NCBI GenBank assembly: GCA_963788925.1
Contig: CAWBIH010000002.1
Location: 664,115 to 728,114 of the forward strand
Direction of reading: 5' to 3'
Source of the DNA: an uncultured Actinomycetota bacterium
GTDB lineage: Bacteria > Actinomycetota > UBA4738 > HRBIN12
DNA length: 64,000 nt
This document shows, piece by piece, positions 38,385 to 51,301 of the stretch; the first letter of the stretch is position 1, and each line of letters begins with the position of its first letter. The notes below the pieces were generated by a model. That model ran no database searches, had not been told where the DNA came from, and saw only the letters and a program-made list of their open reading frames with translations. The translations under genes and the position numbers were made by a program.

Positions 38385-39284
38385 TCAGCCCTTGGTGCCC
38401 GTCAACGTGACGCCCTCGATGAAGGCCCGCTGCGCGAGGAAGAACAGGATGATCACCGGCATCACGAACAGCACCGCTGCGGCCATCGTGAGGTTCCATT
38501 CCACGTGGTACTGACTCCGGAACTCCGACAGGGCGAGCGAGAGCGTCCATCTGTCCGGGTCCTGGATCAGGAAGAGGAGTGGTGAGAAGAAGTCGTTCCA
38601 TGAGTACAGGAACTGGAACAGGGCGACGGCGGCGATCGCCGGCTTCGCGAGCGGCACGATCACCCGGGTCAGGATCTGGAACTCGCTCGCACCGTCGACC
38701 CGAGCGGCATCGGAGAGCTCCGACGGGATGGTCAGGAAGAACTGCCGGAGCAGGAAGATCGTGAACGCGTCGCCGAAGAACAGCGGCACGATCAACGGCT
38801 TCATCGTGCCGATCCATCCGAAGCGCACGAACAGGATGTAGAGCGGGACGATCGTGACCTGGACCGGCAGCATGATCGTGGAGAGGACGACCAGGAACGA
38901 GGCGTTCCGGCCGCGCCACCGCATCCTGGAAAGGGCGTACGCGACCGGGATGCACGAGACGACGACGCCGACGGTCGCCAGGGTCGAGATCGTGACCGTG
39001 TTCAGGGTGTAGCGGAGCAGGGGGATGCGGTCGAACACGTCGAGGAAGTTGCCCCACCGGAACGGGTGCGGCCAGAAGTCGGGCGTCTTGGCCTGGCCGT
39101 CGGTCATCAGCGCGGTCAGCACGATGAACGCCATCGGCAGGAGGAACATGATGCTCACCGCGATCAGGGCCGCGTGGTTCCCCACCTCGGTCAGGAATCG
39201 GCGACGTCGGACGGCAGGAGGGATCGGCCGCCGCGTCCGGGCGGCGGCGGCGGAGACCGGGCGAGCGGTCGTCGCGGTGGCTAT
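38385..39284 (-). CDS. Carbohydrate ABC permease (MalG/CsnG-like); probable ATA start in an ATAG overlap
   Basis: EAA loop DAARVDGASEF, SWNDFFSPL; SD GGAGGG upstream of ATA at 39284. Confidence 0.92.
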   Translation of the reverse strand: MATATTARPVSAAAARTRRPIPPAVRRRRFLTEVGNHAALIAVSIMFLLPMAFIVLTALMTDGQAKTPDFWPHPFRWGNFLDVFDRIPLLRYTLNTVTISTLATVGVVVSCIPVAYALSRMRWRGRNASFLVVLSTIMLPVQVTIVPLYILFVRFGWIGTMKPLIVPLFFGDAFTIFLLRQFFLTIPSELSDAARVDGASEFQILTRVIVPLAKPAIAAVALFQFLYSWNDFFSPLLFLIQDPDRWTLSLALSEFRSQYHVEWNLTMAAAVLFVMPVIILFFLAQRAFIEGVTLTGTKG

Positions 39285-40267
39285 CGGAACCCTCCCTGGT
39301 AGTGGACCCACCGTCGCGACGTCCTGATGATCACGATCGTGCAGGCCATGATGATCAGGAAGAGGATCCAGGCCATCGCCGAGGCATAGCCCATCTGGAA
39401 GTGGGCGAACCCCTTGATGTACAGGTGCAGCGAATAGAAGAGCGTCGACTCCTCGGGCCCGCCGATGTTCGACGCCGCGCCACCCGTCGGCTGGCCGGAC
39501 ACCGCGAAGCTCGCGATGTAGGCCTGCGTGAAGTACTGGAACCCGGCGATCACCCCGATCAGGACCGAGAAGAACATCACGGGGGAGACCATCGGCAGGG
39601 TGATGTAGCGGAACCGTTGCCACGCGCCGGCGCCCTCGATCTCGGCCGCCTCGTAGAGCTGCCGAGGGACATCCAGGAGGCCGGCGAGGAAGATCATCAT
39701 CGTCTGGCCGACGCCCCACAGGCTGAGGAAGACGAGGCCCCACTTCGACCAGAAGGCGCTGAAGAACCACAGGGGCGGATTGTCGACGCCGAGCGTCTTG
39801 AGCCCCTGGTTGATCGGCCCGAACGTGGGGTTGAACAGGTAGACGAATCCCAGCGCCGCCGCGACCGGCGGCACCATGGTGGGCAGGAAGAGGAACGTCC
39901 GGTAGTAGCGGGACCCTCGCTTCGGTCGCGTGAGCAGCCAGGCGAGCGAGAGTGAGGTCACGATCTGCAGGGGAACACCCACCGCGATGATCCACACCGT
40001 GTTCCGCATCGCCTGCCAGAACATCGGATCCTTGGTGAACATGAACCGGTAGTTCTGGAGGCCCACCCACGTGGGGTCCTCGAGAAGGTCGTAGTTGGTG
40101 AACGAGTAATAGAGGCTCGCGATCATCGGATACGCGATGAAGACCGCGAATCCGATCACCGCCGGGAGCATGAACAAGGAGACCGTGGCGTAGTGGCGCC
40201 CGCGGCGCCGCGCCGGCCGTCTCTTCGAGACGGGCCGGCGCGCCGCCGCCGTCAATGTGCCGGCGAT
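39281..40267 (-). CDS. Carbohydrate ABC permease (MalF/CsnF-like); start ATC 40267 or TTG 40255
   Basis: WVGLQNY, LYEAAEIEGAG, MGYASAMAW. Confidence 0.92.
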   Translation of the reverse strand: MAGTLTAAARRPVSKRRPARRRGRHYATVSLFMLPAVIGFAVFIAYPMIASLYYSFTNYDLLEDPTWVGLQNYRFMFTKDPMFWQAMRNTVWIIAVGVPLQIVTSLSLAWLLTRPKRGSRYYRTFLFLPTMVPPVAAALGFVYLFNPTFGPINQGLKTLGVDNPPLWFFSAFWSKWGLVFLSLWGVGQTMMIFLAGLLDVPRQLYEAAEIEGAGAWQRFRYITLPMVSPVMFFSVLIGVIAGFQYFTQAYIASFAVSGQPTGGAASNIGGPEESTLFYSLHLYIKGFAHFQMGYASAMAWILFLIIMACTIVIIRTSRRWVHYQGGFR

Positions 40268-40283
40268 CGCTCCTCCTTCGCGA

Positions 40284-49089: not shown

Positions 49090-50105
49090 AGCGGCCCGCA
49101 CTGCTCGCGGTGGATGCCGGCGGCTCGAAGATCGACGCCGTGTTGCTCCGGCGGGACGGCAACGTTCTGGGCGCAGCACGCCGGAGAGGGCTGGATCACG
49201 ACGGGACCGGCCGGGAGAGCTTCCTCGAACGGGTCGCCGACGCGGTGGTCGCGGCATCCCGGGATGCGGGGTTCGAGCCCGATCACCAGCCGGTGGCGGA
49301 GCTCGGGATGTATTGCGTTGCCGGTGCCGACCTGCCGGCAGATGACCGTCGGATCGCACGGTGGTTCCGTCGGCGCGGCCTCACGGAAAGCGATGTGGTT
49401 CGCAACGACACGTTCGCCGTCCTCCGCGCCGGCACAGAGCGGACGTGGGGCGTCGCCGTGGTATGCGGATACGGGACCAACTGTTCGGCGGTCGCGCCCA
49501 ACGGCCGCACGTTCCGATTCCCGGCGTTCGGGGAGCTGTCGGGGGACTGGGGCGGGGGCCACGACATCGGGAGCGCCGCTCTTTGGCATTCGGTGCGGGC
49601 CGAAGACGGGCGGGGCGAGGCGACGACGCTTCGAACGCTCGTCCCACGGCACTTCGGCTTCACCCGCCCGAAGCAGCTGACCGAGGCGATGTACTTCGAT
49701 CGGATCGCGGAGCGACGCGTGGTCGAGCTCACACCGATCGTCTTCCGAGCGGCGGCGGCCGACGATGCCGTCGCGCGTTCGATCGTCGATCGGCAGGCGG
49801 ACGAGATCGTGCGCATGGCGGGGGTCGCCGTGCGGCGCCTCCGGATGACGCGGCTCGACGTGGACATCGTCCTCGGCGGCGGGATCTTCTCCTCCGGGGA
49901 CGAGGACTTCCTGGGCAGGATCGGCCGAGGACTGGCCGAGGTGGCCCGGCAGGCTCGGGTGCGGGTGCTCGACGTACCTCCGGTGGTGGGGGCGGCCCTG
50001 TTGGGCCTCGACACGATCGGGGCTCGGCCCGACGCCCAGCGCCGGGCGCGTACCGCACTCGTGAACACGCGGCTCGGCACACGTTCACAACGCGAGAGAG
50101 GATGA
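49086..50105 (+). CDS. BadF/BadG-type amino-sugar kinase (CsnK-like)
   Basis: [39 protein letters not shown]. Confidence 0.88.
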
Positions 50106-50109
50106 CGGG

Positions 50110-51301
50110 ATGGCGAAGATCGTCTTCGAGGGAGTGACCAAGGAGTTCGGCGACGAGGTCATCGCCGTGGACGATCTCTCGCTCGAGATCGAGGACGGCG
50201 AGTTCATGGTCCTGGTGGGACCGTCCGGCTGCGGGAAGTCCACGATCCTGCGCATGCTCGCCGGGCTCGAGGAAGTCACCGCCGGGGAGATCTGGATCGA
50301 CGGCAAGCAGGTCACCGACCTTTCTCCCAAGGAGCGGGACATCGCGATGGTGTTCCAGAACTACGCCTTGTATCCGCACATGACGGTCGAGGAGAACATC
50401 GCGTTCGGCCTGAAACTCCGCCACGTGGCGAAGGACGAGCGCGGGCGGAAGGCTCGAGAAGTGGCGCAGGTGCTCGCGATCGAGCACCTCCTCGAGCGGA
50501 AGCCGGCGGCGCTCTCGGGCGGTCAGCGGCAGCGCGTGGCGATGGGGCGGGCGATGATCCGCGAACCCGTTGCCTTCCTGATGGACGAGCCGCTCTCCAA
50601 CCTGGACGCCAAGCTTCGGGTTCAGATGCGGGCGGAGCTCGCTCGTCTGCACGAGCGACTTCGGACCACCACCGTGTACGTCACCCACGACCAGGTGGAG
50701 GCGATGACACTCGGGGATCGTGTGGCCGTGCTGCGCGACGGTCTCCTCCAACAGGTCGATACGCCTCAGCGCCTGTTCGCTCGACCCGTGAATCTGTTCG
50801 TCGCCGCGTTCGTCGGGTCGCCGCCGATGAACCTGGTCGAAGGGACGGTCGAGGGCGGCGCGGTCTCCTTCGCGGGCTTCCGGCTTCCCCTCGGCGAGCG
50901 AACGAACCTGTCGGGCGACGAGGGACGGACACGTGATCGTCGGCATCCGGCCGTCCGATCTCGAGGATGCGGATGTGTGGGCCACGAGCGATGCGACGAT
51001 CCTCGAAGTCGAGGTCGACATCACCGAGGAGCTCGGCTCCGAGGTGAACGTGTTGTTCACGGTCGACGCCCCTCCCGTGACGTCCGAGGAAGCGCTCGCG
51101 GCAGCGAGCGACGAAGGGGCGGAGGACATCCTCCCTCTGATCACGGAGCGGGCGCAGTTCTGCGCGAGGGTCGACGCACGGACGCGTGCCAAGCCGGGCG
51201 AACGGGTGCGGCTGGCGGTGGATCCCAGCCGGTTGCACTTCTTCGAGCCGGACACAGGGCTGGCCATCTCCAGCGAACGCACGGTTCCCGCGACGGCCTG
51301 A
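50110..51301 (+). CDS. Sugar ABC transporter ATPase (MsiK/MalK-like), frameshift near 50930
   Basis: [37 protein letters not shown] part in frame 50933..51301. Confidence 0.92.

Follow-up and report, generated by a model that had tools for sequence, protein, structure and literature searches.

We analysed a 64,000-nucleotide stretch of DNA (the window) from contig CAWBIH010000002.1 of an uncultured Actinomycetota bacterium (GTDB lineage UBA4738; HRBIN12; assembly GCA_963788925.1). Our subject is a gene cluster at positions 38385-51301 in which a putative regulon for chitosan-derived amino sugars, of the type controlled by CsnR in Streptomyces, is joined to genes predicted to degrade D-glucosaminate (GlcN1A) by way of 2-keto-3-deoxygluconate (KDG) and its 6-phosphate (KDPG). 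The G+C content of the window is ∼68%, for which reason raw lists of open reading frames (ORFs) are crowded. Genes were called from Pfam scans of 37 candidate ORFs (33.6-54.8 kb), third-position G+C and start-codon context. All 12 genes that a first-pass annotation had named here were recovered with Pfam, and also with NCBIfam at the family level, where every match lies below its curated cut-off (the closest is Eda with TIGR01182, 151.8 versus 156.05 bits). As that annotation had proposed, they form four transcription units around two identical palindromes (Table 1). The first unit, on the minus strand, consists of a ROK-family repressor, a lipoprotein solute-binding protein (SBP) and the two permeases of an ATP-binding cassette (ABC) transporter. 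Divergent from it on the plus strand is a KDPG aldolase gene (eda) followed by a PfkB-type kinase gene (kdgK). The third unit, on the minus strand and convergent on this pair, contains a GH4 glycosidase and a fold-type III pyridoxal phosphate (PLP) enzyme. The fourth, divergent from GH4 on the plus strand, encodes an SIS-domain protein, a CE4 deacetylase, a BadF-type kinase and an MsiK-type ATPase. The aldolase, KDG-type kinase and PLP genes all lie between ROK and GH4. Overlaps of 4 nt join eda with kdgK, SIS with the deacetylase, the deacetylase with the kinase, and the GH4 stop with the PLP start (ATGA, 46112-46115); the last bears out the coupling of deaminase to GH4 that had been postulated.

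Table 1. Genes and putative regulatory sites of the cluster, in window coordinates
Feature	Position	Strand	Matches and remarks
ABC permease 2 (CsnG-like, MalG/UgpE type)	38385..39311	-	PF00528, E 6.8e-19; UgpE/MalG-type NCBIfam models below cut-off; start uncertain (GTG 39311 or further downstream)
ABC permease 1 (CsnF-like, MalF/UgpA type)	39281..40255	-	PF00528, E 3e-13
Solute-binding lipoprotein (CsnE-like)	40284..41636	-	SBP_bac_8/SBP_bac_1, E 1e-32 to 1e-34; weak NgcE/MalE matches
ROK-family repressor, N-terminal helix-turn-helix (CsnR-like)	41719..42864	-	PF00480, E 1.5e-46; MarR_2/HTH_IclR
Operator 1, palindrome AGGAAAGTTTCCT	42980..42992		Between divergent ROK and eda; a box is likewise found here in sibling loci
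Promoter-like site, ROK-ABC operon	43007..43036	-	TTGACG-18-TAGCAT; operator 1 just downstream of the -10 element
KDPG/KHG aldolase (Eda)	43080..43700	+	PF01081, E 1.6e-38; sole PF01081 member in the genome
PfkB kinase, KDG-kinase-like (KdgK)	43697..44587	+	PF00294, E 3.2e-40; start overlaps eda stop (GTGA)
Fold-type III PLP dehydratase-type deaminase, OngC-like; proposed D-glucosaminate (GlcN1A) deaminase	44832..46115	-	PF01168 (Ala_racemase_N) and PF14031 (D-ser_dehydrat)
GH4 glycosidase, 6-phospho-beta-glucosidase type (CsnH-like)	46112..47383	-	PF02056 and PF11975
Promoter-like site, SIS operon	47373..47401	+	TTCACA-17-TACACT; transcript start at about GTG 47408
SIS-domain protein; proposed glucosamine-6-phosphate deaminase	47408..48460	+	PF01380
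Operator 2, identical CsnR-box AGGAAAGTTTCCT	47419..47431		Between GH4 and SIS; 36 bp upstream of the GH4 start; covers SIS codons 4-8; kept in sibling loci
CE4 (NodB-type) deacetylase	48457..49089	+	PF01522, E 3.4e-27
BadF/BcrAD-type sugar kinase (GlcNAc-kinase family; CsnK-like)	49086..50105	+	PF01869, E 4.3e-24
MsiK/UgpC/MalK-type ABC ATPase	50110..51301	+	ABC_tran and OB_MalK; UgpC 426.5 versus cut-off 432 bits; two frames in the assembly

The box AGGAAAGTTTCCT is an exact 13-nt palindrome. Two copies are present in the window, compared with 0.03 expected, and this number was reached in none of 100 shuffles. Allowing up to one mismatch, the whole genome (2,779,303 bases) holds no site beyond these two, and consequently no gene for a secreted chitosanase carries a CsnR box. 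An oligonucleotide with the csnN106 operator, GTTAGGAAACTTTCCTAAC, is reported to be shifted by an extract of wild-type S. lividans and not by one of a ΔcsnR strain (PMC3048496). The two operators in their window contexts, CTCAGGAAAGTTTCCTAAC and GTTAGGAAAGTTTCCTGAC, match this operator in the core AGGAAA(C/G)TTTCCT and in a TAAC flank on one side of each. In the CsnR literature, (GlcN)2 is reported to be the best in vitro competitor of CsnR binding, and the average is three to four boxed genes per genome.

The composition also agrees at the family level with the csnREFGHK cluster and CsnR regulon of Streptomyces lividans and S. coelicolor (reviewed in PMC6097792), as had been claimed for this locus. 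Likeness to the Streptomyces proteins was judged by family. Both have a ROK repressor gene, with a box of its own, beside SBP and two permease genes, as well as GH4 and a sugar kinase. The differences are that four divergent units are found here in place of one Streptomyces operon, and that CE4, SIS, MsiK, PLP, KdgK and Eda are added. The ROK gene lies directly upstream of the SBP and permease genes on the same strand, and its homologues in sibling clusters, 62-96% identical, hold the same position. We also noted that the ROK frame stays open upstream of the first GTG (42864) with conservation at the protein level, and that no ATG, GTG or TTG occurs there (42864-42990). Translation may start at the in-frame CTG 42888, which aligns with the TTG start of one homologue (L013).

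A scan of 38000-52000 for consensus promoters gave two matches, compared with 0.7 expected, and both abut operators. One serves the ROK-ABC operon; the other puts the transcript start of the SIS operon at about 47408, from which we conclude that this operon is probably leaderless, with the box lying over codons 4-8. Taken together with the evidence on the inserted genes given below, the locus is probably a regulon of the CsnR type, under a ROK repressor, for amino-sugar oligomers that derive from chitosan, with an inserted module leading from glucosaminate to KDG.

The gene at the center of this module is the PLP gene, which is single-copy in its own genome. The best solved relative of the protein is PDB 3gwq (E 9.2e-73, full length), deposited as a D-serine deaminase. 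Residues H83, K85, D374-Q375-H376 and H399/C401 were invariant in a 28-row alignment of PLP proteins. We take K85 to be the PLP lysine and the HxC motif (H399-x-C401) to be the metal site of eukaryote-type D-serine dehydratases. The protein can also be aligned from end to end with the PLP protein of an ong cluster of Vibrio sp. THAF191c (34% identity over 418 aa, E 3e-79). In this Vibrio cluster (L037), genes for GH20, Eda, PfkB, an SSS transporter, RidA and an OngB-like amidohydrolase are divergent from the PLP gene and an RpiR gene; the amidohydrolase matches the solved PpOngB (9kb1) with E 2.8e-170. The ong cluster was described from Pseudoalteromonas prydzensis (OngA, OngB, OngC, OngD, KdgK, OngIT and OngR) as a pathway for oxidised chitin products. 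OngC, a fold type III enzyme, has been shown experimentally to convert GlcN1A to KDG and ammonia, after which KdgK acts, and a KDPG aldolase is also present in the ong clusters of Vibrio, Klebsiella and Serratia (PMC9537276). By comparison of gene order, the Vibrio cluster has the canonical layout of that report, including the extra Vibrio aldolase, and its PLP protein corresponds to OngC.

We also compared the contexts of further homologues; tblastn against plasmids and chromids matched 326 records. In Ralstonia and Arthrobacter, PLP homologues with 38-41% identity have a kinase, Eda, RidA and a D-aminoacylase as neighbors. In Ralstonia, the PLP gene and a sugar kinase gene stand opposite a divergent group made up of Eda, a GntP/DsdX-type permease, RidA, an amidohydrolase and RpiR; in Rhizobium, the PLP gene and RidA accompany a sugar ABC transporter and an amidohydrolase. 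Two monomer-type ong-like clusters were seen in cultured Actinomycetota. One is on a plasmid of Arthrobacter sp. StoSoilB13 (L042 6600-13973; RidA, kdgK, a PLP gene whose product is 41.5% identical, D-aminoacylase, eda and GntP), and the other is in Sciscionella (L014/L015; RidA, PLP gene, amidohydrolase, GntP and lactonase). A quick IQ-TREE phylogeny, in which several branches are long and placements unsure, put the Vibrio and Ralstonia ong proteins as sister (SH-aLRT 93) to a clade with the csn-linked, Arthrobacter/Sciscionella and YkuD-linked proteins; the window protein was not placed within a purely ong clade.

The two other genes of the module lie 251 bp from the PLP gene. The window Eda shares 37% identity with its counterpart in the Vibrio ong cluster. 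The kinase is nearest among solved proteins to the KDG kinase PDB 1v19 (E 1.2e-32), and it scores on the NCBIfam models for KDG/2-keto-3-deoxygalactonate (KDGal) kinase and for IolC with E 1e-36 to 1e-39, below cut-off. That a KDG kinase is encoded here argues for deamination ahead of phosphorylation. This order, as well as the name of the enzyme, differs from the phosphorylate-first glucosaminate route (DgaE), with which the KDPG aldolase end step is shared.

In order to check the co-occurrence of csn genes with the deaminase, kdgK and eda, as the first-pass annotation had recommended, we surveyed 215 genomes of the same class, one of uncultured soil bacteria, that were at least 80% complete (thresholds: GH4, E up to 1e-100; PLP, E up to 1e-30; kdgK, E up to 1e-45). 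Since related genomes are not independent, the counts are descriptive and not tests. A csn-type GH4 orthologue was present in 112 genomes and the PLP protein in 51. In 37 of these 51 (36 without one genome flagged as unpublished), PLP follows GH4 on the same strand at a distance of no more than 3 kb: directly adjacent in 17 (including G013, with split hits), with an insert of ∼1.3 kb in 12 and of ∼2.7 kb in eight. In the other 14, GH4 was on a different contig (nine), far away (one) or not found (four). A kdgK orthologue was found in 36 genomes, within 700 bp of PLP in 29 and with eda no more than 300 bp away in 33; PF01081 itself was present in just 52 of the 215. Genomes flagged as unpublished are included among those with GH4 (G065, G096, G107, G162, G163 and G197), with PLP (G107, in the adjacent class, and G197, unlinked) and with Eda (G047, G052, G058, G061 and G197); none is among the 29 in which PLP and kdgK are linked. 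Among the 17 genomes scored of the window's own genus, PLP, kdgK and eda occur together in four (G000, G013, G015 and G158), and in a fifth (G022) PLP is accompanied by a kdgK seen only as a fragment at a contig end. The remaining 12 had no match to PLP or kdgK, and eda was unmatched in these and in G022. Judged from this distribution, the three genes come and go as a set within the genus.

The relatives share a conserved core, msiK-kinase-CE4-(SIS) divergent from GH4-ROK-SBP-permease-permease, and differ in what stands between ROK and GH4. This slot is empty in four loci (L022, L023, L024 and L025, from G012, G026, G033 and G039), of which the first three have both boxes and L025 has none matching the search pattern. 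It contains eda-kdgK and the PLP gene in G015, G013 and G158 of the window's genus, and partially in G022. RidA alone occupies it in L011, L013, L044 and L046 (confirmed by Pfam in L011, E 7e-34, and L013, E 1e-32), and eda-kdgK-RidA in L048 and the metagenome loci L034/L035. Eda-kdgK is accompanied by a PLP remnant in L017 and similarly in L016. Because its contents differ among lineages, we regard the slot as a variable cassette under operator 1. RidA would be expected beside an enamine-forming dehydratase and parallels OngD of the ong cluster; it is not in the window cluster, and three PF01042 genes are found elsewhere in the genome.

Several further features of the sibling clusters were noted. 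In two metagenome-assembled genomes, what stands next to GH4 is a C-terminal PLP remnant of ∼119 residues (L017 1062-1419; L016 4519-4875); L017 retains kdgK-eda, and its genome has no full-length PLP copy. A sugar aminotransferase of the DegT/DnrJ/EryC1 type lies between GH4 and PLP, antisense, in many sibling clusters; its presence was verified in L044 (11681-13021, minus strand), L046 (10749-11981, plus strand), L051 (8614-9840) and L052 (9366-10595). One idea is that this aminotransferase might act on keto-oxidised sugar ends. In the clusters with a ∼2.7 kb insert, DegT is accompanied by a second GH4 gene, whose product is a paralogue with 35-37% identity to the csn-type enzyme (L046 9446-10684, L047 10626-11906 and L052 8002-9237; eight genomes by spacing, three seen directly). 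In the same-genus cluster of G013 (L021, contig C6), SBP is in five pieces and PLP and GH4 are in two pieces each; so many frame breaks suggest an assembly of low accuracy and not gene decay.

The other enzymes of the locus were placed by similarity. GH4 matched solved 6-phospho-beta-glucosidases over the full length (5c3m, E 3.5e-102; 1s6y, E 9.3e-101; 1up6, E 2.6e-80) and alpha-glucosidases with E 1e-13 to 1e-18, which places it by similarity in the 6-phospho-beta-glucosidase subgroup, far from the alpha-specific enzymes. The SIS protein matched NCBIfam models for the GlmS isomerase domain (E 1.9e-31), NagB-II (E 5.8e-20) and GlmD (E 3.4e-13), as well as the glucosamine-6-phosphate (GlcN-6-P) deaminase PDB 8eol (E 7.9e-12). 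It has a two-SIS architecture like that of the GlmS isomerase domain. Since its scores are far below the equivalog cut-offs, it is at best a distant member of the SIS-type GlcN-6-P deaminases (NagB-II of Shewanella, GlmD of Thermococcus). No PF01182 (NagB) match was found in the genome. The BadF-type kinase matched NagK_SO3507 (E 7.8e-18) and, among solved proteins, was nearest to the N-acetylmuramate/N-acetylglucosamine kinase PDB 8zo3 (E 1.3e-18). The N-terminus of SBP ends ...LFAAAC, a lipoprotein-type signal read by eye. By eye no N-terminal signal sequence was visible in the CE4 deacetylase, which we propose to be cytoplasmic. The E. coli chb operon likewise pairs a GH4 enzyme (ChbF) with a deacetylase (ChbG); here a kinase would act after ABC import instead of a phosphotransferase system.

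A mechanism can be proposed from these assignments. Oligomers rich in glucosamine (GlcN) would be imported by the lipoprotein SBP, the two permeases and the MsiK-like ATPase. Residual N-acetyl groups would be removed by the CE4 enzyme in the cytoplasm, and the BadF-type kinase would phosphorylate O6 of GlcN or of the non-reducing unit. GH4 would then split the beta-1,4 bond to yield GlcN-6-P and an aglycone, and the SIS protein would convert GlcN-6-P to fructose-6-phosphate and ammonia. A reducing-end GlcN1A, if present, would be released by GH4 as the aglycone and converted to KDG by beta-elimination through the translationally coupled PLP enzyme. KdgK would phosphorylate KDG to KDPG, and Eda would cleave this to pyruvate and glyceraldehyde-3-phosphate. 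Expression would be controlled by binding of the ROK protein to the two palindromes, which overlap the divergent promoters. The scheme would give each enzyme of the locus a role and account for the coupling of GH4 with PLP. It builds on observed gene content, operators, synteny, linkage and homology, and it presumes the enzyme specificities, the inducer and the control of eda-kdgK by the repressor. Both catabolic routes of the first-pass annotation are supported as predictions. The glucosaminate-KDG-KDPG branch is well supported by genomic context, through the linkage of PLP to kdgK in 29 genomes and the homology to ong-type PLP proteins, and its chemistry was published previously.

A number of observations weigh against this reading or parts of it. 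All activities of the window enzymes are predicted, from family-level matches that fall short of their NCBIfam cut-offs. With regard to regulation, a control pattern, the box read backwards, matched one site in the genome compared with two real sites, so it is the placement of the operators and not their number that counts. No consensus promoter for eda or GH4 was found in the scan of 38000-52000, and for this reason it is the position of operator 1 that points to repression of eda-kdgK; by eye, TACGCT at 43011-43016 with a -35 element inside the right half of the box is a possible eda promoter. With regard to the pathway, the window KdgK is merely 25% identical to KdgK of the Vibrio ong cluster. 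An OngB-type deacetylase was not found in the genome by tblastn, in which a D-aminoacylase-type query gave one weak 88-aa match. The flanking amidohydrolase (33666-35141), considered as an equivalent, was unmatched by this query and was rejected. The Sciscionella cluster can be counted as a clean ong cluster only in part, its amidohydrolase being nearer to the D-aminoacylase 1m7j (E 6.4e-82) than to PpOngB (E 5.1e-64). We compared 16 clusters bearing PLP or kdgK/eda (15 genomes and the L034/L035 pair, counted once); four further core clusters have neither. Four of the 16 (G108, G110, G111 and G068) have GH4-PLP and RidA without kdgK/eda, and a PF01081 aldolase was not found anywhere in the genomes of G108 and G110. 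The csn-linked PLP proteins form two well-supported subclades whose union is unsupported (SH-aLRT 17). The PLP family is, moreover, functionally mixed. Homologues in Klebsiella, Pantoea and Agrobacterium (35-41% identity) adjoin RidA and an amino-acid ABC transporter. A sister clade (∼60%; 55-63% identical), separate in the tree (SH-aLRT 99), lies beside a YkuD L,D-transpeptidase, an ornithine/diaminopimelate-decarboxylase-like gene and an M15 peptidase, without a kdgK orthologue (13 loci: L003-L010, L012, L029-L031 and L033); by its neighbors, this is a cell-wall or amino-acid setting. In genus g42, PLP is present in nine of nine genomes and kdgK in none. These contexts agree with a PLP enzyme that is a general dehydratase of D-serine, D-threonine or D-amino acids, placed in the cluster by chance, with KdgK and Eda serving another source of KDG. 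The same view is favored by the name of the C-terminal Pfam domain (D-ser_dehydrat) and the deposition of 3gwq as a D-serine deaminase, by the reported activity of OngC itself on D-serine and D-threonine (PMC9537276), and by the single PLP copy in each of six genomes tested. If this were so, the locus would be an ordinary CsnR cluster with passengers. We consider it improbable for the following reasons. Behind a CsnR box, the end of GH4 and the beginning of PLP overlap, and in 29 genomes no more than 700 bp separate PLP from kdgK. The three genes are gained and lost jointly within the genus. Apart from PLP, no enzyme that would form KDG is encoded in the window cluster, and its Eda is the only one of the genome.

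Other doubts concern the substrate of the module. The slot might handle another modified amino sugar, such as a different amino-sugar acid or a unit that is keto-oxidised or changed in some other way, with PfkB and Eda acting on a related 2-keto-3-deoxy acid. The variable slot contents (RidA only, eda-kdgK, eda-kdgK-RidA, the DegT-type aminotransferase and the second GH4) would agree with this, as would the scores of the kinase on the IolC and KDGal-kinase models. A further point against a glucosaminate module is that G190 and G173 (L051 and L052) lack the fold-III PLP gene although they have eda-kdgK and a DegT-type aminotransferase; in G190 the DegT-type gene follows eda-kdgK on the same strand. 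Such a substrate seems improbable to us, as GlcN1A to KDG is the sole biochemically proven reaction known of the PLP family that feeds a KDG kinase (PMC9537276), and the set of PLP, RidA, kinase and Eda recurs in ong-type clusters of three other lineages. Glucosaminate could alternatively be made in the cell, imported GlcN being oxidised at C1 by an unlinked dehydrogenase and PLP-KdgK-Eda forming a second, non-phosphorylative route for GlcN without import of oxidised oligomers. A source of GlcN1A is indeed not evident from the cluster, and PLP homologues of Sciscionella and Eleftheria adjoin lactonases, so a lactone-forming oxidation is linked to the family elsewhere. In addition, LPMO_10 (lytic polysaccharide monooxygenase), GH18, GH46 and GH8 had no match in the genome (92.6% complete), which for the glycosidases is another difference from Streptomyces, and an oxidised substrate would thus have to come from neighboring organisms. 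The search for GH75 chitosanase was uninformative, as its control matched in no genome. Set against oxidation in the cell are the tight coupling of GH4 with PLP, which fits a product released by GH4, and the complete GlcN-6-P route already present. Moreover, in 20 GH4-type cluster variants, tblastn with a fixed, non-exhaustive query set, in which oxidases and dehydrogenases were not represented, gave no recognisable oxidase, dehydrogenase or lactonase in the slot or the operons. As a candidate GlcN oxidase, the luciferase-like oxidoreductase of the flank (35904-37136) was rejected, as among 12 sibling loci it is kept solely in the close relative G158; gdh is kept in G158 and G013 only. We therefore regard oxidation in the cell as rather doubtful. 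The missing LPMO and glycosidase matches and the unrecognised oxidases fit the scavenging of oxidised products of others, and they leave room for oxidation of GlcN inside the cell. That the imported substrate is already oxidised at C1 is accordingly the weakest link of the preferred reading, and the arrival of the glucosaminate end from outside, on oligomers made by LPMO or an oxidase, is its least certain step. As a tentative scenario, uncultured soil Actinomycetota that have no LPMO, GH18, GH46 or GH8 match may salvage oxidised chito-oligosaccharides of others in the cytoplasm. Oligomers ending in an aldonic acid would enter intact under the control of CsnR. They would then be deacetylated and 6'-phosphorylated, and GH4 would cleave them as a phospho-beta-glucosaminidase; the glucosaminate would be burnt via the OngC-like deaminase, KdgK and Eda. 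On this view, the slot cassette of sibling genomes (RidA, DegT, second GH4) would offer tools for ends oxidised in different ways, possibly keto (C4-oxidised) ones.

The first-pass annotation had suggested that the pathway might be undescribed. This holds in part: the conversion of GlcN1A to KDG by OngC, followed by KdgK, was published in 2022 (PMC9537276), and each half of the locus is known, while the combination of a csn regulon with a glucosaminate module is apparently undescribed. We found no paper tying csn clusters or Actinobacteria to glucosaminate catabolism, and the papers on GlcN1A were all proteobacterial ong work, in a search by which subscription journals are largely uncovered. 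The complete ong pathway was reported solely from Gamma- and Betaproteobacteria (PMC9537276). The cluster shares with it the fold-III PLP deaminase homologous to OngC, linked to a KDG kinase and a KDPG aldolase, and the RidA of the sibling clusters. It differs in the proposed entry of oligomers through an ABC system followed by cytoplasmic cleavage by GH4, compared with the periplasmic OngA (GH20 in the Vibrio counterpart) and the uptake of monomer by an SSS transporter in ong. A CE4 deacetylase stands in place of the D-aminoacylase-type OngB, and ROK/CsnR in place of RpiR; OngA, the SSS transporter and RpiR are not in the locus, and the host is Gram-positive with no LPMO_10 match.

Oxidative (LPMO-driven) turnover of chitin is a large flux of carbon and nitrogen. 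What becomes of its aldonic-acid products is known from a single pathway that has been characterised by experiment, that of a marine gammaproteobacterium. The locus suggests a second solution in Gram-positive bacteria, in which a deaminase-kinase-aldolase module is wired into a regulon for chitosan oligomers. If this is true, these organisms would be consumers of oxidised chitin or chitosan products of other microbes. There would also be a testable frame for the long-unassigned roles of CsnH (GH4) and CsnK, and the enzymes would be candidates for valorising oxidised chito-oligomers.

The MsiK-type ATPase had been described as dedicated to the cluster. A gene of this type is present, in two frames owing to a +1 frameshift near 50926-50932, where the assembly has one base more than the same-genus genomes G158 and G015. 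Contigs of three short-read runs from three studies (X1, X3 and X5) omit one letter at 50930/50931, and on this basis the frameshift is probably an assembly indel and not the mark of a pseudogene. Two further MsiK-like genes, 62-63% identical, are found elsewhere in the genome. Contigs of runs X3 and X5 also have an additional C after 51307, at the 3' end of a GT87 ORF (51307-52608, minus strand), which may be another indel difference. From the metatranscriptome run X19, contigs with 93-98% likeness can be aligned to the PLP, SIS, CE4 and kinase genes over part of their length; transcription is unproven by such contigs, and uncovered parts are uninformative. Outward from the last ∼80 bases of the window, the same genome carries a second sugar cluster (C2:728031-742577) with paralogues of the BadF-type kinase (33%) and GH4 (26-28%), permeases and an MsiK-like ATPase (62%).

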